Assembly (NCBI GenBank): GCA_018304025.1
Contig: JAGVXA010000004.1
Span: forward strand, 9,719-73,718
Reading direction: 5' to 3'
DNA from: Candidatus Pacearchaeota archaeon
GTDB lineage: Archaea; Nanobdellota; Nanobdellia; Pacearchaeales; GW2011-AR1
DNA length: 64,000 bases
The stretch's first letter is position 1. Every line of letters begins with the position of its first letter. Below the pieces are notes generated by a model, which was given only the letters and a program-made list of their open reading frames with translations, had not been told where the DNA came from and did not search any database. Below are positions 4,440 through 57,107 of the stretch, piece after piece. The position numbers and the translations under genes are program-made.

Positions 4440-4571
4440 TGCGGGGAGTAGGATTCGAACCCACGAAGGCACTAAGCACACAAGATTTCTCAAGGAAATC
4501 TCATCTTAAATTTTCCCAACGGAAAACCGACTTCTTAAGTCTTGCCCGTTTGACCACTCCGGAATCCCCGC
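4440..4571 (-). tRNA. tRNA-Leu(TAA) with ~47-nt anticodon-loop intron
   Basis: On the minus strand the acceptor stem GCGGGGA pairs with TCCCCGC. A 3-bp D-stem (CCG/CGG) with a long D-loop is typical of class II tRNAs. The anticodon stem CAAGA with loop CTTAAG(A) gives anticodon TAA. Its pairing strand TCTTG appears only ~47 nt downstream, implying an intron at 37/38. The T-arm GTGGG-TTCGAAT-CCTAC and a long variable arm follow. No CCA is encoded, and an oligo-T (ATTTTTATTT) follows the 3' end. Confidence 0.6.
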
Positions 4572-10548: not shown

Positions 10549-11349
10549 ATGACAGTAAAATCATTGAAAAGAACACAAGGAAAAATACCGAGAGAAAGAT
10601 TTTATAAAAATCCGGCAGCCCACATATCAGAAGAAAAGCGGGCGTATTTGTGTTCTCCAGAAGCCAGAAAAAAATATGTAGACATTTCTTACGAAGAAGC
10701 AGAAAAGCTCGGGCAACTAGAAGAATTTTATCGTTTGTTTGCATTGGGCGAGCTGGCTCATCTCGCCGCGACAGGCGCCAGCGGAGAATCAGGCAAATTT
10801 GATTATTACGCAAAAGAATTCGACAGCATGCACGATAAAATCGCCAGAAAAAACACAGGATTAGTTTACAAAATGATTGGTGGGCAGCCTAAAACAGATC
10901 TTGACGATTTAGAATCAGAAGGATTTTATGCTTTGGCAAGAGCAATAGATAAGTTTAATCCATGGTCAGGATATCACTTTTCAACTTATGCCTGCTTTGC
11001 AATAATTCGCGCCGTCGGCAGAAGCAAAAAAAAGCAGTATAGAAACAAAGAAAGATTTAGGCTTTTAACAGATCCTTCCGCAGCATTGGACATTCCAGTA
11101 GAAAATTACGAGCTGTCTTCAGACAATACAGAACGTTTCCTTAAAAACCTCCCAAAGATTTTGATAAACCCAGATGTCCTAGATTTTCTCGATGCTGAAG
11201 TTATATCATCGCGATTTCCAAAAACAGGCGAAAAAGAAAGTCTCGAGTCAATAGGCAGGAGAATTGGTTTGTCAAAAGAAAGAGTCAGGCAGATTCAGAA
11301 CAAAGCATTAGTAAAATTAAGATTCAAATTAGAAGAGTTAGTAGTTTAA
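10549..11349 (+). CDS. Sigma-70 family RNA polymerase sigma factor-like protein (regions 2 and 4); alternative start 10489
   Basis: GFYALARAIDKFNPWSGYHFSTYACFAIIRAV resembles sigma-70 region 2.2-2.4 (GLmkAveKFdp.rGykFSTYAtwwIRqai). LESIGRRIGLSKERVRQIQNKALVKLR resembles region 4.2 (LEEvGkqfgvTRERIRQIEaKALRKLR). Confidence 0.5.
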   Translation: MTVKSLKRTQGKIPRERFYKNPAAHISEEKRAYLCSPEARKKYVDISYEEAEKLGQLEEFYRLFALGELAHLAATGASGESGKFDYYAKEFDSMHDKIARKNTGLVYKMIGGQPKTDLDDLESEGFYALARAIDKFNPWSGYHFSTYACFAIIRAVGRSKKKQYRNKERFRLLTDPSAALDIPVENYELSSDNTERFLKNLPKILINPDVLDFLDAEVISSRFPKTGEKESLESIGRRIGLSKERVRQIQNKALVKLRFKLEELVV

Positions 11350-23519: not shown

Positions 23520-23597
23520 ATAATTCTTTTCATCCCCCCACTTTTAAACTTTCCGCTTATTACTATTTTATAATTACACAATTACGGCAAATCAAAA

Positions 23598-23703
23598 CTC
23601 TCCCCTCCCTTTTTCGCTTCGCTCAAAACCCCTCCCCCAAATTCCCCAATTCCCCAACCCCAAAACCTCCCCCAATCAAAAGTTTTAATCCCTGCGTTTG
23701 TCG
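23598..23703. repeat. C-tract-rich (C4A2-like, G4-forming on minus strand) intergenic element + conserved leader caaaagttttaatccctgcgtttgtc
   Basis: The sequence is cccctccctttttcgcttcgctcaaaacccctcccccaaattccccaattccccaaccccaaaacctcccccaatcaaaagttttaatccctgcgtttgtc. Related copies occur at 24972..25030, 26216..26344 and 26963..26996. Confidence 0.6.
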
Positions 23704-23772
23704 TCAAATTAAAGGAGTTGCAAAAATCAGAATCATCCCAAAAGTTTAATATCCTATACGGCAATTAATTGT

Positions 23773-24630
23773 ATGATAAGTTTTATTTTAGCATGCTCAG
23801 ATGATCCCCTCAAACAAATAACAGAATGTCTGGATGTAACAGGACGAATCGAAAAAGAGTGTGAAAAAAATTCAAAGATAACTCTTGATTTATCTAGACT
23901 GGAATGGATTTTGCCCTGTTCTGCTTTGATTCTAAGCAATAAAATAAGCGAAGTCGCAGGGAAAGGATGTGCAATAACATTCATCAAACCAGAGAAACCT
24001 CAGGTAAAAAATTATCTCGAAAGTGTCGGCTTTCCGTTAGGAGGAGTTGGCACAAATGCAACTTACATGCCGATACATCACTTTAGCAGAAAAAAAGGCG
24101 AAGACTCAACCAAAATAATCGAAAAAGAAATGGAAGAGATTTACAGTGTTGTAGAAAAAAACTTGCCTTCCGAATTAAGCAGCGGAATTTATTATTTGCT
24201 TGGAGAACTTTCTGACAACATTGACCAGCATTCAAATTTTACCATTGTGTCTATAATGGTGCAGTATTACAAAAAGAAGGGGCATATAGATATTGGGGTT
24301 TTAGATAATGGCGAGACTATTCCAGGAGTATTCGAAAAAAATGGCATAAAATTCGAGAGAGATGAAGAAGCCATTAAAATGGCTTTGCAGGGAATCTCAA
24401 CAAAAGAAGGAGAAATAGGAAGGGGAAAGGGGCTGATAACATCTAAACGTTTGGTTCAGAAAGGTTTGAACGGAGAATTTTTTATTTTATCACGAAAGGG
24501 ATTTGTCAAAGCAGTAGGAGAGAAAACAATTTTTAACGAACTCGGCGGAAGATCTTTCAAAGGAACTTTAATTTACATGCGTTTTTCAGACCCAAGAAAA
24601 GGTTTAAATATTTACAAGTATGTAGAATAA
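23773..24630 (+). CDS. STAS-like N-domain fused to GHKL (histidine-kinase-like/RsbW-like) ATPase
   Basis: The N-terminal ITLDLSRLEWILPCSALILSNKI is STAS-like. The C-terminal GHKL boxes are LGELSDNIDQHS (N box), GVLDNGETIP (G1) and GRGKGL (G2). Confidence 0.5.
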   Translation: MISFILACSDDPLKQITECLDVTGRIEKECEKNSKITLDLSRLEWILPCSALILSNKISEVAGKGCAITFIKPEKPQVKNYLESVGFPLGGVGTNATYMPIHHFSRKKGEDSTKIIEKEMEEIYSVVEKNLPSELSSGIYYLLGELSDNIDQHSNFTIVSIMVQYYKKKGHIDIGVLDNGETIPGVFEKNGIKFERDEEAIKMALQGISTKEGEIGRGKGLITSKRLVQKGLNGEFFILSRKGFVKAVGEKTIFNELGGRSFKGTLIYMRFSDPRKGLNIYKYVE

Positions 24631-24631
24631 C

Positions 24632-24913
24632 ATGGTTTTACAAATTTCTTTATTTGAATATTTTGGAAGATTTATAGTCACTAGAAACGCGATGTCAAGG
24701 TTTCTGGATGAACTTAGCCGCGCTTCAGATAAAAACATTATCGTCGATTTTAAGGGAACTGAGTTTATTTCCCGATCCTGTGCAGACGAGTATATCCGGA
24801 GAAGAATTATTTTTAAAAAAAACATAACGGAAATTAATGTTAGCCCAACTGTTCTCTCCATGTTTAAATTAGTCAGAAGCCAGTATAAGAAAAATATGGG
24901 TTTAACAGCTTAA
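24632..24913 (+). CDS. DUF4325-like STAS-domain protein
   Basis: The segment IIVDFKGTEFISRSCADEYI matches the DUF4325/STAS-like pattern (IdFkGVefisrSFadE). It lies 1 nt after the GHKL gene. Confidence 0.5.
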   Translation: MVLQISLFEYFGRFIVTRNAMSRFLDELSRASDKNIIVDFKGTEFISRSCADEYIRRRIIFKKNITEINVSPTVLSMFKLVRSQYKKNMGLTA

Positions 24914-25109
24914 CTTCTCTTAGACAATTCATAAACAAACGGCGTAATCGCATCCTCTTTTCCATCTCAAAAACGCCGGCGCAAAAACCCCCAACCCCCC
25001 AAATTCCCCAAACCCAAATTCCCCAAAATCAAAAAAGCTGCAGAAGAAAGTTTTATATAGCACATTAACCAAAAGTTAACATACATTAACTAATAGTTAA
25101 TATAACCAA

Positions 25110-26215: not shown

Positions 26216-26344
26216 GAAACGCCGACGCAAAAACCAACAATTTCTCCCCCTCAACTTCCCTCCCAAATCCCCCAACCCCAAAACTCCCCAATTCCCCAAA
26301 ATCAAAACCTCCCCCAATCAAAAGTTTTAATCCCTGCGTTTGTC
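26216..26344. repeat. C-tract-rich intergenic element, copy upstream of DUF4258/DUF2283 pair
   Basis: It reads aaacgccgacgcaaaaacc...cccccaacttccctcccaaatcccccaaccccaaaactccccaattccccaaaatcaaaacctcccccaatcaaaagttttaatccctgcgtttgtc. Its 3' half is ~95% identical to 23640..23703. Confidence 0.6.
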
Positions 26345-26414
26345 ATCTAAAAAAGGAGTTGCAAATCAAAAGCACAGTCTTAACATTTATTAACTTCTTT
26401 AGTTTGTTCAACAA

Positions 26415-26708
26415 ATGGTTTATTTATTTGAAGCAGTTGATAAAACCGGCAGAAAAATACATTTGTCAAAAGAAAGATGGACGCATATAAGAAAGAAACA
26501 TCCAGAAGTTGTAGATATAGACGAAATTGAAGAAACCTTAAAAAATCCCGATAAAGTTACTTTTCCTAAATTAGACGAAAACGCTGGCTTGTATTACAAA
26601 TATTTTAAACACAGACACTCACCTTACAAATATCTTCTCGTTTTAGTTAAATATTTAAACGGCGAAGGTTTTGTTATAACCTCTTATTACGAGGATAAAA
26701 TAAAATGA
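26415..26708 (+). CDS. DUF4258-like small protein (putative toxin of DUF4258/DUF2283 pair)
   Basis: It is 97 aa, with HLSKERWTHIRKKHPEV. Its stop overlaps the downstream DUF2283 gene. Confidence 0.4.
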   Translation: MVYLFEAVDKTGRKIHLSKERWTHIRKKHPEVVDIDEIEETLKNPDKVTFPKLDENAGLYYKYFKHRHSPYKYLLVLVKYLNGEGFVITSYYEDKIK

Positions 26709-26950
26709 CAGACACAATATACGAAATTTATTATGATAAAGAAGCAGATTTCTTAGAAGTATTTTTCGGAGAGCCGACACCGTGTTATGCTGAAGAACCA
26801 GAAGAAGGCGTTTTTATAAGAAAAGATGAAAACACAAACGAAGTAAAAAGTGTTGGAATACTTTCCTTCGGAAAGAGAGCGTATCTTCTTAAAAAATTAT
26901 TGCAAAATTTAAATAAAACCCTTCCTAACGAAATAGATATATCTGATTGA
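26705..26950 (+). CDS. DUF2283-family small protein
   Basis: The segment EIYYDKEADFLEVFF matches the DUF2283 signature (YDxEaDaLyI). Confidence 0.55.
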   Translation: MTDTIYEIYYDKEADFLEVFFGEPTPCYAEEPEEGVFIRKDENTNEVKSVGILSFGKRAYLLKKLLQNLNKTLPNEIDISD

Positions 26951-27195
26951 ACATTTGAATCTCATCTCCCCATCCCCCCAAATTCCCCAACCCCTCCAAG
27001 AAATTTTCTCTTCATCATATTAAACCAAACCAAAAGTTTTATATGTTCTCATAATCTAAGTATCTTGTAAGTGAACCGGCTCCATAAAAGGTTTGTGTAT
27101 GCAGACTGGCCAGCGCGTATGCGTGTGATTGGTTGGGAAGGCCGCTACTCACTTACATTAATTTACCATTATTATTAATATTCTTTGTCTGCATA

Positions 27196-27435
27196 TCACT
27201 CAACTTCCCATTTATATTCCTTCTCAATTAATTGCTCTCTCAGCGCAAAAAGATATTCAGAATAATTCCGGCTGCGCAGTTCTTTGTCACCAATCAATCT
27301 CCTTAGCGCCCTGTGATCTTCGCACGCGTTTTGAATAATAACATCATTCTGCCCGTCGTAGATTCTCCCGCTCAAAAAAGCCAGAAAACTATTTGCTCTC
27401 ATCAGCAATTTCCGTTCTTCTGTTTTTCTTTTCAT
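27196..27435 (-). CDS. Small hypothetical protein, paralog of 28350..28592
   Basis: The true ATG is at 27435. The track's MEGFC extension is the translated SD GGAGGG. It has ~40% identity to 28350..28592 and an identical upstream 45 nt. Confidence 0.4.
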   Translation of the reverse strand: MKRKTEERKLLMRANSFLAFLSGRIYDGQNDVIIQNACEDHRALRRLIGDKELRSRNYSEYLFALREQLIEKEYKWEVE

Positions 27436-27502
27436 ACAAAATCCCTCCAATCAATAGTTTTAAACTTTCCGTTTATTGTCTAAGAAAGAGATTACAAAAC
27501 AT

Positions 27503-27904
27503 TCAGAAAGAAACCTGCCCAGGTTCTAATCTTTTTACTTGGGTTTTATCAAAATGCTTGTCAAAACTTACAATAGACAACGAATATTTTTTGCAAACAG
27601 CTAATTGAATAGAATCATCAAAATCAATCTGAAACTCTTTCATATCTTTAACAGCAGTTGATTCATCAGAAGTTACAGTATCCACCCGGATAATTTTACT
27701 TCGGGTAATAAATGAAAGAAAACTCTCCAGCGCTTCTGTCTTGTTATTTCTAGCCATGATTACTTCAATAGAATGCAAGGTGAAAGAACTGACGTAAAAA
27801 GAGTCTTTGCTTTTGTCAATGCTCTTCAAAAAAGATTCGCATTCATCCGCCCTTTCTTGATTAAGGAGAACCTCTAAGAATATATTTGTATCGATTAAAT
27901 ACAT
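27503..27904 (-). CDS. vapC: PIN-domain nuclease (VapC-like toxin)
   Basis: The N-terminal MYLIDTNIFLE is the PIN hallmark, and there are conserved acidic residues. An antitoxin-like gene lies immediately upstream. Confidence 0.65.
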   Translation of the reverse strand: MYLIDTNIFLEVLLNQERADECESFLKSIDKSKDSFYVSSFTLHSIEVIMARNNKTEALESFLSFITRSKIIRVDTVTSDESTAVKDMKEFQIDFDDSIQLAVCKKYSLSIVSFDKHFDKTQVKRLEPGQVSF

Positions 27905-28349: not shown

Positions 28350-28592
28350 TCATTCTCTCTCAATCTTCCACTTCCTTTCATACTCATCCAACTGGTACTT
28401 CAATGCAGAAATATAAGCATTATAATTTTGATTGCGTAATTTTTTATCACAAACTAATCTCCTCAATCTTCTGCTGTCCCGGCACATTCTTTCAAGAATC
28501 GCGCTGTCTTGGTCGTCGTGTATTCCGCTTCCAAATAAATAAAGAATGTCATCTGCCCTTTCCCTTAGCTGTTCTTCTGTTCTTCTATCCAT
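28350..28592 (-). CDS. Small hypothetical protein, paralog of 27196..27435
   Basis: It has the same upstream SD/promoter block. The ATG is at 28592. Confidence 0.4.
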   Translation of the reverse strand: MDRRTEEQLRERADDILYLFGSGIHDDQDSAILERMCRDSRRLRRLVCDKKLRNQNYNAYISALKYQLDEYERKWKIERE

Positions 28593-28867
28593 GTAAAATC
28601 CCTCCAATCAATAGTTTTAAACTTTCCGCTTGTCAGAATTGGCTCCGTAGAATAACTCCTCCAAGTTGTTACATTTAGTTATAATTTATTGCTACTTGCA
28701 AAAACAACATTTGCAGTCTAAGATGCTGTCCAGTTATCGCGAGATAGATTATAAAAAAGCACCAGAAAAACGAAGAGGTTTCTTTCTAATTATATTTAAA
28801 AGTTGATGATAATTTGACAGTATCCGCAAACAAATAAATTTATATACATCTTTCAATCCCAAAGAAA

Positions 28868-52985: not shown

Positions 52986-53260
52986 TTATTCCCCTCCCAA
53001 TTTAATTTTATCTCACAACCCAACCGAACTCTTTCCCCAATTTATTTTTGTCTATCGCAATAAATCCCCAACCCCTCTTGAATTTTCTCCCCAATAATTA
53101 TTCCCCTCCCCATTTAATTTTATCTCACAACCCAACCGAACTCTTTCCCCAATTTATTTTTGTCTATCGCAATAAATCCCCAACCCCTCTCGAATTTTTC
53201 TCCCCATTAATTATTCCCCTCCCCAAAACTCCCCACCCATCTTTAAATCCTCACCCCATT
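52986..53260. repeat. Tandem ~113-bp direct repeat (2.3 copies) rich in C4-5 tracts (CCCCAA-like)
   Basis: The unit ttattcccctccc(c)a(a)tttaattttatctcacaacccaaccgaactctttccccaatttatttttgtctatcgcaataaatccccaacccctct repeats at 52986 and 53099. A partial third copy follows. Confidence 0.7.
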
Positions 53261-54581: not shown

Positions 54582-57107
54582 TTAGTTGGAAAAATTACAG
54601 TTTGTCGGAATGCCAGGTCCGCTCAAGCACATGTCAAACTTATTCAAATCGTCTTTGTCGACGTCATTATCTCTATCGAAATCCACATCAGAGCATTCAA
54701 ATGTTAGCGGATTTTCAAGCCCAGAAAAACAAGATTGCAAATGTCCAAAATCAATCATGTCAATATCGCCGTCTCTGTCATAGTCAAGGTTTAGTTTTTT
54801 CTGCAGCAGCGGAGCGTTTTGAGGAAGGCGAGCCATGTAAATATCTCCGTAGTATGTGCCTGCATTATTTCTAGTATCTGTCCAGACAAGAATGTTCCCA
54901 CCAAGATTTGGTTCATATTGGTGCTCATTATTTGGTGTAATAATAAATTCTCCTCTGTCGTCATTTGTGCCAAAAACTTTATCTTCTCCAAAATCAAAAG
55001 CAAAAACATCCGCCGTAGCAGAACCTGGCGGATTATTATTATTTCTCCAATCCGAAAATAATAAATATCTATCTCTAATAAAATGATCACCAAGACGCAC
55101 TTTCCCACTCTTAGTTATCTGAAAAGGCCCCCTATCATCGCCTGTTCCGTGTTTCAAATCAACTCCGATATCATAACCATAAATATTTCTAGCCCCAGAA
55201 ATTCCATTTTGCCAGACAATCATTCTTTCCGAGATTTGCGGATTGCAAGAGCTATCAGAAAGATTTTGTGCTATAGTAAAGTCTCTATTAGTCGAAATTT
55301 CTTTCCCATAAATATTTTTAATTTGCAAAGCATATTTCGCCGCATATACAAAATTATCTCCAGACATGTCCAAGACAGTTATAGCAGAATACGGAAGAGT
55401 TAAAACATTCTCATTTCCAGAATTAATATCTTTTATGTGCGCTTCAGACACGTTATTGACTAAAGAAAGCACGCGCCCATTATCGATTGATTGGGCCACA
55501 CTAAATACACCATTACTTAATTGCGTTTTTTCTTTTGTATTCAAATTGTAAAGAATTGCACGAGAATTAGAATAAGGATTCATATTTGTTGAATAAATCA
55601 ACCAACCATTCTCGATACATTTGTATGCACCCATCCTTTTTGACAGTATGTCCGAATCAATTGAAATCTCCTCCCCACCATCTATCTGTCTCGCCTTTAT
55701 CGAATAAACACCATTATTCAATTCTCTCCAAGCTACCCAATTCCCATCAGTTTTCGGATTATCTTCTGTTAAATCGCTAGTCGATAAAGCACTAACAAAG
55801 CCCTGTGGCAGCGTCCCCATCGCCCCCGCCCCATTCACCCTCCCCGCCCCCGAATCAGTATCCCACCCACTGGGAATATCAGCAGTCATTTCCAAATGAG
55901 CCCGCATCGCGTCTGGAAAAGTGCCGGGAAACCGCCCAAGAACCAGCGCAGCCAACCCAGAAACATGCGGAGCAGCCATCGAAGTCCCCGAAGCAATTCG
56001 ATAATCAGCGCCAACAGCAACAGTATTGTTGTCAAAATCAGCATCTCTCTGCGCAGCGCTCAACGAAAGAATTTCTGTCCCCGGCGCGCCCACACTTATT
56101 CCCGCGCCATAATTAGAAGAAGCACTGCGGACATCCTCTGAAGTCAAATTTGAAACAGCAATCACGTGCTCCATGTTCGCAGGAAAAACTCCAGACACGT
56201 CAGCACTTTCATTGCCCGCCGCAGCAACCAATAAAACATTTTTATGAAAAGCATAATCAACAGCTTCTTCAAGATGCGACGGCGCAGCTCCCGATGTCCC
56301 AATGCTCATGTTAATTACATTAGCCCCGTTGTCAGCAGCATATATAATCGCCCGCGCAATATCTGTTGAAGCGCCGTTCCGCCCGCTCGCGCCAATAACT
56401 TTCAAAGGCATTATTTTTGCCCCATACGAAACTCCTATAATTCCTTCATTATTATTTCCTCGTCCAGCAACAATTCCAGCAACATGCGTCCCGTGCCCGT
56501 TGTCATCCATCGGATCAGTATCTTCATTCACAAAATCAAATCCCCGCGCCCCATCAACAGGATTCGTCCAGACATCCCCGACGTCAATTTGATTATAATC
56601 CAAGCCAGTGTCAATCACAGCAACAGTTATATTATTTCCAGCAAGCGGAACACCGTCGCCATTCTTAGGAAAACTATCCCACGCCTTGTCCGCCTGAATT
56701 TTTTTCAATCCCCACAAATCATTATACAAACTATCGTTCGGCTCATAAAAACAATGAACATAAAAGTCAGGTTCAGCATAAGCAATCCGCGCATCTTTTT
56801 TTAATCTGCCAATCACATCCTCAACTTTTTCCCCGTGCGCTATCTTAGCAGTATAAGTTCCAGAAAGTTCTTTAGAACCCGACAGATGCAGCGCTTTCAT
56901 TTCATGAATCCCGTGCCTGCGGACAACATCATCGAGAACTTCTTTTCCGTATCTTCCCTCGAATGTATTTTCATTTAATTTAACAACAACTCTGTCAGAA
57001 ACATATTTTTCCGAGCCGCCAAAAGAAGTTTGCCCGAACATACTCGCGAGTGCAAAAGCCCCGCCAACAAGCGCCTTCTTGAAATTTCCAAAATCGTTGC
57101 GTGTCAT
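54582..57107 (-). CDS. Secreted subtilisin-like serine protease (S8) with beta-propeller-like extension and C-terminal dockerin-like module
   Basis: It has a signal peptide. The catalytic triad motifs are VAVIDTGLDYNQ (Asp), HGTHVAGIVAG (His) and GTSMAAPHVSGLAALV (Ser). The C-terminus reads DYDRDGDIDMIDFGHLQSCFSG...DVDFDRDNDVDKDDLNKFDMCLSGPG. Confidence 0.75.
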   Translation of the reverse strand: MTRNDFGNFKKALVGGAFALASMFGQTSFGGSEKYVSDRVVVKLNENTFEGRYGKEVLDDVVRRHGIHEMKALHLSGSKELSGTYTAKIAHGEKVEDVIGRLKKDARIAYAEPDFYVHCFYEPNDSLYNDLWGLKKIQADKAWDSFPKNGDGVPLAGNNITVAVIDTGLDYNQIDVGDVWTNPVDGARGFDFVNEDTDPMDDNGHGTHVAGIVAGRGNNNEGIIGVSYGAKIMPLKVIGASGRNGASTDIARAIIYAADNGANVINMSIGTSGAAPSHLEEAVDYAFHKNVLLVAAAGNESADVSGVFPANMEHVIAVSNLTSEDVRSASSNYGAGISVGAPGTEILSLSAAQRDADFDNNTVAVGADYRIASGTSMAAPHVSGLAALVLGRFPGTFPDAMRAHLEMTADIPSGWDTDSGAGRVNGAGAMGTLPQGFVSALSTSDLTEDNPKTDGNWVAWRELNNGVYSIKARQIDGGEEISIDSDILSKRMGAYKCIENGWLIYSTNMNPYSNSRAILYNLNTKEKTQLSNGVFSVAQSIDNGRVLSLVNNVSEAHIKDINSGNENVLTLPYSAITVLDMSGDNFVYAAKYALQIKNIYGKEISTNRDFTIAQNLSDSSCNPQISERMIVWQNGISGARNIYGYDIGVDLKHGTGDDRGPFQITKSGKVRLGDHFIRDRYLLFSDWRNNNNPPGSATADVFAFDFGEDKVFGTNDDRGEFIITPNNEHQYEPNLGGNILVWTDTRNNAGTYYGDIYMARLPQNAPLLQKKLNLDYDRDGDIDMIDFGHLQSCFSGLENPLTFECSDVDFDRDNDVDKDDLNKFDMCLSGPGIPTNCNFSN

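Follow-up and report, generated by a model that had tools for sequence, protein, structure and literature searches.

The two adjacent genes at positions 23773 to 24913 of the window (the whole stretch of 64,000 nucleotides of DNA from a Candidatus Pacearchaeota archaeon that was analysed here) are a stripped-down, mobile, effector-less variant of the CapK/VapK switch, and probably operate as a minimal kinase-substrate switch of that type. The host is a tiny DPANN archaeon from groundwater. The original prediction of two open reading frames on the forward strand, at 23773-24630 and 24632-24913, was confirmed, with a single base between the stop codon of the first gene (hereafter K) and the ATG of the second (hereafter S):

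23773..24630, + strand: gene K, 285 aa, STAS-GHKL serine-kinase-like protein, distantly homologous to VapK and CapK by profile comparison
24632..24913, + strand: gene S, 93 aa, single-domain STAS protein (divergent DUF4325), predicted substrate or partner of K

Profile libraries alone were indecisive with respect to the domain composition of these proteins because the Pfam scores fell under the thresholds (HATPase_c on K, 24.2 bits with a cut-off of 26.4; DUF4325 on S, 19.1 bits with a gathering threshold of 23), and the domains were settled by structure prediction. The predicted fold of K is a STAS domain followed by a SpoIIAB-like GHKL domain, with SpoIIAB as the closest structural match, and that of S is a STAS domain alone, so that both domain readings in the original prediction and its analogy to RsbW/RsbV are correct. 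There is no HTH domain on K, which opens directly with the STAS domain. NCBIfam returned nothing for K beyond a 12-bit match to a sensor kinase, PDB sequence searches with the K and S family profiles yielded no relatives, and PADLOC-DB 2.0 contained no significant defence-model match for either protein; S matched nothing, and the sole PADLOC match of K (DrmA, 14.5 bits) was treated as noise or generic GHKL similarity. At E <= 0.001, a profile search with K retrieved 5,948 representatives (50% identity), among which more distant relatives such as VapK are included; the homologues listed at the top of this set are full-length proteins of about 280 aa. The motifs quoted for K, namely DNIDQHS, DNGETIP and GRGKGL, are all present, and the residue conservation given below comes from an alignment of 44 homologues:

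23773..24087, + strand: N-terminal STAS-like domain of K, approximately residues 1-105
24100..24627, + strand: C-terminal GHKL (Bergerat-fold) kinase domain of K, approximately residues 110-285
23905..23907, + strand: Trp45 in the STAS domain of K, an aromatic residue invariant in the 44 homologues
24205..24234, + strand: N box ELSDNIDQHS of K, with E145, D148, N149, H153 and S154 invariant
24214-24234, + strand: DNIDQHS of K, residues 148-154
24277..24279, + strand: Lys169 in the beta-hairpin QYYKKKG of K, at least 90% conserved
24304..24324, + strand: G1 box DNGETIP of K, residues 178-184, with D178, G180, I183 and P184 invariant
24418..24435, + strand: G2 box GRGKGL (ATP lid) of K, residues 216-221, with R217, G220 and L221 invariant and G218 nearly so
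24562..24567, + strand: G3-like Gly264-Thr265 of K, both invariant

Matches of S to DUF4325 are weak and extend to 33 of the 58 S family members (E <= 0.01; best E 1.6e-4), and no member of the archaeal branch of S has a precomputed Pfam match; more closely related proteins of bacteria and phages resemble DUF4325, with gp42 of Bacteroides phage BF1-TP2 annotated as DUF4325 and one partner (L112_S) showing a weak precomputed match. The word-based search with S gave 5 proteins only, and the S partners were therefore recovered from the K loci; the profile search with S gave 265 proteins. The Foldseek search of the PDB with S used a library up to April 2026 that does not include CapS and VapS. Weak PDB matches of S to ribosomal proteins were dismissed as chance similarity to the string SRSCADEY.

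The motif quoted for S, IVDFKGTEFISRSCADEY, was found at residues 37-54. The original prediction had proposed looking for a phosphorylatable serine or threonine in S, and two serines are present at a site that is invariant in the 58 archaeal partners:

24770..24778, + strand: Ser47-Arg48-Ser49 of S, putative phosphorylation site at the N-terminal end of helix alpha2

Helix alpha2 is predicted to begin at residue 48. The first serine of this motif is kept in all eight divergent bacterial, viral and archaeal partners, and the second is replaced by alanine in one partner (L113_S). By analogy, the site would correspond to the position of the phospho-serine of SpoIIAA, S54 of CapS and S48 of VapS. 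The alignment of S with VapS covers only the N-terminal half (hhalign 52%) and the register at the acceptor serine is off by one residue, which leaves a choice between Ser47, the most likely phospho-acceptor, and Ser49 as the alternative. S of the window stops at residue 93 and has nothing beyond the last STAS helix; a C-terminal tail of 12-15 residues is found in most S family members and is lost in the subclade of the window protein. There is no wHTH DNA-binding domain on S.

The original statement that the pair cannot be assigned to any described system is out of date. CapK/CapS and VapKSC, both reported in 2026, couple ssDNA to an immune output in bacteria by means of an anti-sigma-type kinase and its STAS substrate (PMC13373217). 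CapK/CapS is a DNA-damage-activated pair of a kinase and a repressor that precedes operons such as those of CBASS, Bub and Thoeris, and VapKSC consists of the kinase VapK, the STAS antitoxin VapS and the PIN toxin VapC (Chambers et al., EMBO J 2026; PMC13373217). Judging by profile comparisons, K is a remote homologue of both kinases: a K family alignment (A2) matches VapK over 226 columns that span both domains (hhalign 96.3%, E 2e-9, 22% identity), and hmmsearch with the K profile scores VapK at 38.8 bits and CapK at 22.2 bits, as against 130-190 bits for bacterial, phage and other archaeal relatives of the two-gene type.

The residues on which these kinases depend can be located in K. CapS phosphorylation is lost in the N218A mutant of CapK (PMC13373217), and this residue aligns with N149 of K (hmmsearch). 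Phage protection, or the stimulation of the kinase by ssDNA, is lost on mutation of VapK F54 and CapK W68, residues that the source paper equates (PMC13373217); W45 of K aligns with VapK F54 (hhalign) and probably corresponds to CapK W68, as suggested by the published equation of the two residues together with the local motif read by eye, the hmmsearch alignment with CapK starting downstream. The aromatic residue at this position is kept as W in ORFB of psiM100 and as F in the protein of the virus contig L115 (manual motif reading). K169 of K aligns with VapK K181 (hhalign) and with CapK K239 (hmmsearch), a predicted ssDNA contact (PMC13373217), and K167 with CapK K237. The ssDNA-binding groove was described from AlphaFold 3 models rather than a solved complex, and ssDNA-stimulated phosphorylation of a STAS partner is known only for CapK (PMC13373217).

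Like VapK (302 aa), K has the STAS-GHKL architecture without an HTH domain and retains the aromatic sensor residue and the lysine hairpin, its gene is directly followed by one for a small STAS protein (about 100 aa) that has a conserved serine at the start of helix alpha2, and S can be aligned with VapS over the N-terminal half. Unlike VapKSC, the K-S pair has neither vapC nor any other third gene, in the window and in 45 archaeal loci; the S clade carries the signature F-I/M-S-R-S-x-A-D-E/Q instead of F-A-S-P-F-F of VapS; the K clade possesses a specific C-terminal tail, N-I-Y-x-Y-x-E; and S of the window lacks the VapS-type C-terminal extension, which in VapS reaches the VapC active site and inhibits the toxin (PMC13373217). 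With CapK/CapS the pair shares the order of a STAS-GHKL kinase and a STAS substrate along with the catalytic asparagine and one of the two lysines (K239 of CapK, K169 of K), but K is devoid of the N-terminal HTH domain of CapK (368 aa), S is devoid of the wHTH domain of CapS (182 aa), which makes a CapS-type repressor role impossible, and no immune operon follows. The SpoIIAB/SpoIIAA and RsbW/RsbV pairs similarly combine a GHKL serine kinase with a single-domain STAS substrate or antagonist; in contrast to these, the K-S host is archaeal, neither a sigma factor nor a PP2C phosphatase is linked, and K carries a fused STAS domain that is missing in SpoIIAB and RsbW. The 'PIN.4' group of VapC toxins is transcriptionally coupled to DUF4325 genes (PMC5499597), a coupling that probably represents the VapS-VapC pair.

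The K-S pair, which is conserved in about 100 loci, is far beyond chance, and it is a self-contained and horizontally mobile two-gene unit located, as originally noted, among toxin-antitoxin cassettes. S follows K in every one of the 88 related loci whose downstream DNA is long enough, mostly after a spacer of 1 nt or 34 nt; the pairwise identities of the two proteins co-vary (r = 0.72; mean identity 0.51 for S and 0.48 for K); and on a Nostoc plasmid they are fused into a single protein of 414 aa (K at 33-279, S at 320-391). Most of the approximately 100 archaeal loci look chromosomal. The pair is also found in bacteria, on a haloarchaeal (Halobaculum) and a cyanobacterial plasmid, and in viral genomes: Bacteroides phage BF1-TP2 carries it as an insert, the Methanothermobacter prophage psiM100 has it in fragment IFa, and in the IMG/VR virus contig L115 it stands between the portal-like and terminase genes, so that it crosses the domains of life and their viruses; the IMG/VR pattern scan gave 1 relative only. 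Among phage protein families, K matches phrog_3364 and S matches phrog_20761. In Francisella phage KIRK, the interval from the cI repressor to the integrase contains a gene for a 293-aa protein and, after it, a DUF4325 gene (PMC7924643). This protein, KIRK Fhv_0046, is a possible K homologue and was not among the phage tblastn matches.

In the survey of genomic context proposed in the original prediction, strict linkage was found; enrichment in defence islands did not emerge for the archaeal clade, in which PADLOC gave a handful of candidate-defence matches on 150 neighbours and known defence genes were rare. Integrases and toxin-antitoxin components are the most frequent neighbours in archaea. 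In one bacterial locus the pair lies right after an MmeI-like restriction-modification gene and an SNF2/PLD gene, and in another it is divergent to SIR2_2. The flanks of 45 archaeal loci were surveyed with Pfam (150 proteins) and all-against-all BLAST (225 proteins), and no third gene is shared by more than 4 of these loci; neither a PIN gene nor a conserved third gene was found in three bacterial, two viral and one prophage loci.

The toxin-antitoxin surroundings of the pair in the window and the sigma-70-like gene, both noted in the original prediction, are real: NTP_transf_2/HEPN, PBECR2/DUF2283 and PIN/AF2212-like families were detected, each above the Pfam cut-off, and the pair is situated between these cassettes. 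The genes that follow S are an independent MNT/HEPN pair. Two further genes of the window bear on the interpretation:

27503-27904, strand opposite to the pair: PIN gene with its own AF2212-like antitoxin
10549-11349: sigma-70-like gene (Sigma70_r4, 45.5 bits; Sigma70_r2, 34.4 bits)

The C-rich repeats at the cassette borders were considered as integron attC sites and rejected: no inverted repeats were found there, and the repeats, which contain C, A and T but hardly any G, cannot form the attC hairpin. The promoter and terminator scan was uninformative because it applies bacterial models to an archaeal host. ARAGORN found no tRNA, and Rfam gave a 132-nt tRNA match.

Under the scenario of a CapK/VapK-type switch, K would be an active SpoIIAB-like GHKL serine kinase with its own N-terminal STAS domain packed against the kinase domain. 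By homology with CapK and VapK, ssDNA produced by DNA damage or by the replication of a virus or plasmid would occupy the STAS-GHKL groove, touch Trp45 and Lys169 and turn K on, a trigger to which the two conserved residues and the published AlphaFold 3 models point. Active K would then phosphorylate S, most likely at Ser47, and thereby change its binding partner. In the relatives, the output is carried by the wHTH repressor domain of CapS or by the VapC toxin bound to VapS. With S reduced to a bare STAS domain and no linked third gene, the output would be K itself or a protein encoded elsewhere, by the host or by the invading element; the nature of this output is a matter of speculation, with growth arrest or exclusion of the invader as the likeliest consequence. 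The unit would be inherited and transferred as a two-gene cassette. We also see a modest chance that the pair is a signalling device complete in itself, with an unlinked core host component, such as a transcription, translation or replication factor, as its target. It would in that case be the first pathway of partner switching or of GHKL-serine-kinase signalling that we know of in Archaea, and also a RecA/LexA-independent ssDNA sensor exchanged among DPANN genomes, plasmids and the viruses of archaea and bacteria as a means of halting or reprogramming the cell.

The original prediction offered two options, control of the sigma-70-like protein or a stand-alone defence or abortive-infection-type module, of which the second appears better, although, with no effector identifiable, the role in defence is one that we infer. 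A genuine protein with both Sigma70_r2 and Sigma70_r4 is unusual in an archaeon, and its presence in the same window, along with the anti-sigma F kinase SpoIIAB being the top structural match to K, lends some appeal to a partner-switching scheme in which K holds this protein and S is the antagonist. Nevertheless, such control is very unlikely. The sigma-70-like gene belongs to another gene cluster, 12.4 kb away from the pair, with more than 10 unrelated genes in between. A search of 104 related loci, with flanks of up to 6 kb on both sides, yielded no homologue of it, and the neighbours of the pair are not conserved. Furthermore, no sigma gene is annotated or was found in the inspected flanks of the copies in the methanogen prophage, the haloarchaeal plasmid, viruses, and bacterial phages and plasmids, and PP2C/SpoIIE is absent from the precomputed Pfam lists of the window and from the 25 commonest neighbour families. 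CapK and VapK themselves act on no sigma factors (PMC13373217). The weak HATPase_c and sensor-kinase matches could conceivably denote a fragment of an ordinary two-component sensor histidine kinase next to a chance neighbour, but this reading, to which we assign practically no probability, is refuted by an N-terminal half that is entirely a STAS fold, with no match to HisKA and no DHp or phospho-acceptor histidine region, as well as by the linkage to S. The closest structures being serine-kinase anti-sigma factors and the full-length size of the listed homologues also argue against it.

The two remaining alternatives retain the pair as a functional unit. In a classical toxin-antitoxin module, K would be a toxin that phosphorylates an essential host protein or, as an ATPase, sequesters it, and S a pseudo-substrate antitoxin lodged in the active site of K, such that loss of S frees K in the absence of any nucleic acid sensing. 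The location of the pair in a run of toxin-antitoxin cassettes, its presence on plasmids and prophages, and the tight coupling of the genes through a 1-nt spacer are all compatible with this scheme, which does not require a third gene. Antitoxins usually diverge faster than toxins, however, whereas S is as conserved as K; the natural K-S fusion is more in line with S as a regulatory domain than as a labile antitoxin; and the sensor positions, invariant W45 and K169, would be left without a role. We know of no GHKL-kinase toxin, and consider this alternative unlikely. A counter-defence or life-cycle device borne by viruses or plasmids, which would sense DNA damage for the lysis-lysogeny decision or block host immunity of the CapK/VapK type (for example, with S as a decoy), the chromosomal copy being a remnant or domesticated, is also unlikely. 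The phage protein families, the copies in BF1-TP2, psiM100 and L115, and the gene arrangement in phage KIRK are in accord with such a device, but the window islet contains no viral structural genes and no nearby integrase, and the mostly chromosomal appearance of the archaeal loci and the low yield of the IMG/VR scan do not favour it either. Prophages commonly carry defence modules, and the viral presence of the pair therefore does not separate a defence function from a viral device. The CapK/VapK-type switch is accordingly the reading that we prefer.

The K-S pair represents a separate, large and uncharacterised branch of the CapK/VapK family that corresponds to PHROG families 3364 and 20761. 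Although this branch comprises nothing but a kinase and a bare STAS protein, the pair is strictly conserved and is transferred among bacteria, archaea and their viruses. Tractable homologues for experimental study include gp43/gp42 of Bacteroides phage BF1-TP2, ORFB/ORFC of Methanothermobacter psiM100 and the Halobaculum plasmid gene. Even if the pair is merely a toxin-antitoxin module, it would amount to a new class of toxins. If the switch works as proposed, the sensing module can work without a linked effector, which makes its target one to find, and GHKL-kinase/STAS signalling would reach the Archaea, including the genome-reduced DPANN with their little known regulatory machinery.

The ORF positions confirm two same-strand genes, as originally predicted, with a single base between the stop codon of the first (K, STAS-GHKL kinase-like) and the ATG of the second (S, a DUF4325-like STAS protein):

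23773-24630, + strand: gene K, ORF of 285 aa
24632-24913, + strand: gene S, ORF of 93 aa

A protein 100% identical to K is on record as a "hypothetical protein" of Candidatus Pacearchaeota archaeon, and it recurs, beside the neighbors that K has in the window, on over 20 contigs from groundwater metagenomes; the host is therefore a DPANN archaeon. Both proteins score below the Pfam cut-offs (K against HATPase_c, 24.2 bits, cut-off 26.4; S against DUF4325, 19.1 bits, cut-off 23), and neither has a meaningful match in NCBIfam or PADLOC. The GHKL signature of K is invariant in an alignment of 44 homologues.

Invariant residues of K (+ strand) in the 44-homologue alignment
N box: E145, D148, N149, H153, S154
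G1: D178, G180, I183, P184
G2: R217, G220, L221
Further residues: G264, T265

K lacks a DHp/HisKA region and therefore is not a fragment of a sensor histidine kinase; its reading as an ordinary sensor kinase fragment is refuted. Its fold is that of an active SpoIIAB-type Ser kinase fused to a STAS domain, and none of the catalytic motifs is missing. The structural analogy to RsbW/RsbV drawn in the original prediction was right. S consists of a STAS domain alone, and its invariant Ser-Arg-Ser lies precisely at the start of helix alpha2, apparently the acceptor position of SpoIIAA, RsbV, CapS and VapS; candidates for the phosphorylatable residue sought in the small protein are the invariant Ser47 and Ser49. 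S is basic (pI 10.0; family median 9.3), as might be expected if its partner were a nucleic acid or an acidic protein, but this is no proof.

Profile-guided scans yielded 24 loci from species-representative genomes, all from DPANN archaea (Nanoarchaeota, Woesearchaeota and Pacearchaeota), and 78 metagenome loci which, together with two copies of the window's own locus, amount to 104 loci. An S-type gene follows K on the same strand in 88 of the 88 loci with enough downstream sequence, typically after a spacer of 1 nt or 34 nt, and encodes a protein of 93-120 aa with the motif DF..v.F-I-S-R-S-C-A-D-E-Y; in all 16 remaining loci, the sequence ends at most about 160 nt past K. The linkage that the original prediction required is conserved across genomes. 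Among 58 non-redundant partners, R18, F40, F45, S47, R48, S49, D52, E53 and K63 of S are invariant. The pairwise identity of K tracks that of S (r = 0.72, 903 pairs), so both genes are inherited as a unit; they always occur together and are fused at least once.

In an exhaustive profile search, 5,948 representatives (clustered at 50% identity) passed E <= 0.001 and 287 passed E <= 1e-30; the top 150 of the 5,948 are mostly 250-310 aa long and match end to end. The two-gene relatives, which score 88-189 bits against the archaeal profile, include the following:

Bacteroides phage BF1-TP2: gp43 "ATP-binding protein", then gp42 "DUF4325 domain-containing protein"
Methanothermobacter wolfeii prophage psiM100: ORFB/ORFC, inside the annotated "inserted fragment IFa"
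Halobaculum plasmid: plasmid-borne gene
Nostoc plasmid: 414-aa fusion (K, residues 33-279; S, 320-391)
Bacteroidia chromosome: K-S pair
Bacterial contig: K-S directly after an MmeI-like R-M gene and an SNF2/PLD gene
Bacterial contig: K-S divergent to a SIR2_2 gene
IMG/VR viral contig: K-S between portal-like and terminase genes

The annotation of psiM100 ORFB/ORFC notes similarity to MTH315/MTH316. The PHROG families matched are phrog_3364 for K (153 bits) and phrog_20761 for S; each is annotated "unknown function". All 8 divergent S partners examined contain F-(I/M/I)-S-(R/S)-(S/A)-x-A-(D/H/Q)-(E/Q), in which the first Ser is universal and the second is replaced by Ala in one. The gene directly downstream of K-S varies between elements: in psiM100 it is ORFD (L108, 4916-6394; 492 aa, no Pfam match), and after the Nostoc fusion it encodes a DUF5895 protein (L106, 3202-4308). 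Either could be a lineage-specific output partner.

The closest described systems are bacterial immune switches (Chambers et al., EMBO J 2026; PMC13373217). CapK (HTH-STAS-GHKL) is switched on by T/C-rich single-stranded DNA of roughly 20 nt; activation is lost in the W68A mutant, and K237 and K239 are predicted contacts. It phosphorylates CapS (STAS-wHTH) on S54, whereupon the repressor dimer dissociates and downstream immune operons are de-repressed. In the related three-gene VapKSC system, the kinase VapK lacks the HTH, and VapS (S48), in which a short C-terminal region follows the STAS domain, binds and inhibits the PIN toxin VapC; the system protects E. coli against phage Bas42, and protection is abolished by VapK F54A, a residue equated with CapK W68. 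Dataset EV3 of that study contains three-gene loci only, and the two-gene clade is not described there (PMC13373217).

We recovered the VapK, VapS, CapK and CapS sequences from the supplementary files of that study; in the reconstructed CapK and CapS, W68, N218, K237, K239 and S54 fall on the expected residues. The archaeal K family aligns with VapK across both domains (hhalign probability 96.3%, E 2e-9, 226 columns, 22% identity), and hmmsearch scores VapK at 38.8 bits and CapK at 22.2 bits. In the alignments, invariant W45 pairs with VapK F54, N149 with CapK N218, and K169 (at least 90% conserved) with VapK K181 and CapK K239. The alignment of S with VapS is confined to the N-terminal half and runs as far as the DF..v.F strand (hhalign 52%, E 1.4e-4). 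Unlike CapS with its wHTH, S has no DNA-binding domain; unlike VapKSC, the pair has no linked toxin; and the VapS region that blocks VapC has a counterpart in an amphipathic C-terminal tail on most S proteins that is lost in the window's subclade. The extreme C-terminus of K (window 24592-24627) carries a motif common to the two-gene clade, P-K-K-x-L-N-I-Y-x-Y-x-E (F/L-N-I/F-Y-x-Y-L/V-E in bacteria and phages; homologues in loci L105, L107, L108 and L112-L115), which VapK lacks; this motif and the S tail may both be docking elements. Although originally considered unassignable, the pair belongs to the recently described CapK/VapK kinase-STAS family as a new cross-domain variant that lacks an effector, here in a DPANN archaeon.

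Taken as a whole, a kinase-substrate switch appears to be the most probable function, a reading that we favor with some reservation; any specific output is far less secure. K would phosphorylate S on Ser47, or alternatively Ser49, and single-stranded DNA would switch K on via the conserved Trp45/Lys169 groove. Given that S lacks a DNA-binding domain, a linked toxin and, in the window, the tail, unphosphorylated S might hold its own kinase, K, or else a protein of the host or an invader that is encoded elsewhere, although this output is speculative. A plain toxin-antitoxin pair with K as the toxin seems unlikely, as it leaves the conservation of S, the natural K-S fusion and the conserved sensor residues unexplained. 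A viral counter-defense or life-cycle role, suggested by the frequent carriage of K-S by viruses, we consider slightly less plausible still. The suggestion that K-S controls the window's sigma-70-like protein is attractive but unsupported and highly improbable: the gene (10549-11349, + strand, 266 aa) is real, with Sigma70_r4 (45.5 bits) and Sigma70_r2 (34.4 bits) both above the Pfam cut-offs, but it lies 12.4 kb from K-S and has a homologue in 0 of the 104 related loci. K-S is also found in viruses, prophages and plasmids whose hosts include methanogens, haloarchaea and bacteria, and the flanks inspected there contain no sigma gene. Archaea are not expected to encode a bacterial-type sigma factor, yet the contig is assigned to Pacearchaeota; the gene may have been acquired horizontally, or its product may be a co-opted DNA-binding protein.

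Pfam was searched with the 150 proteins encoded by the two closest genes to either side of K-S in those archaeal loci whose flanks were surveyed.

Commonest neighbor families among the 150 flanking proteins
Phage_integrase: 5
MNT-type nucleotidyltransferases: 3
RadC: 2
GNAT acetyltransferases, DUF2283, HicB-like: 2 each
RhuM: 1

An all-against-all BLAST of 225 flanking proteins revealed no conserved third gene, with no family in more than 4 of 45 loci; K-S is therefore a self-contained unit whose surroundings vary and are rich in mobile elements. PADLOC recognized just a handful of the 150 proteins, which does not support enrichment beside known defense genes for the archaeal clade.

Within the toxin-antitoxin (TA) islet around K-S, a PBECR2-like gene (Barnase-EndoU-ColicinE5/D-RelE-like nuclease; 26415-26708, + strand) overlaps a DUF2283 gene (26705-26950, + strand) in what looks like a toxin-antitoxin pair; DUF2283 adjoins K-S in two further loci. 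Paralogous 84/85-aa genes without a Pfam match (27196-27450 and 28350-28607, both - strand) flank the PIN/AF2212-like pair and may represent a duplicated small gene; a 61-nt stretch across their 5' ends and upstream regions (27414-27474, 28571-28631) is 90% identical and ends in a TATA-like box, TTTTAAAC, similar to one at 23542-23567, upstream of the glycosyltransferase gene. Every cassette border of the islet carries a + strand C-rich repeat (23629-23673, 24988-25024, 26246-26297, 26968-26994), with others at 53216-53238 and 55815-55851; they are built of AATTCCCCAA units and contain 4-6 runs of C3-6. By shuffling, 0.07 such motifs would be expected in the window (genome 37% G+C), and the copy at 23629-23708 shares 89% identity over 80 nt with that at 26271-26350. 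Clusters of G-runs or C-runs resembling these occur in a few related DPANN loci (7 in L019, 3 in L025). The repeats could form G-quadruplexes on the minus strand and i-motifs on the plus strand. They cannot form hairpins and hence were rejected as attC sites; possible roles are as insulators, terminators or recombination hot spots. CapK reportedly prefers T/C-rich single-stranded DNA (PMC13373217), which may be a coincidence. Elsewhere, the window opens with an integrase gene (L109, 1574-2395, equivalent to the stretch from the window edge to about position 515). A full-length Rfam tRNA match spreads over 132 nt (4440-4571, - strand), which suggests an intron of about 60 nt, and ARAGORN calls no tRNA in the window; this would fit an archaeal tRNA that contains an intron.

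We know of no description of GHKL-kinase/STAS signaling of the CapK/VapK kind in Archaea. The interest of K-S lies in a kind of signaling that is, as far as we are aware, new to this domain and in the missing output, which presents a concrete, testable question.
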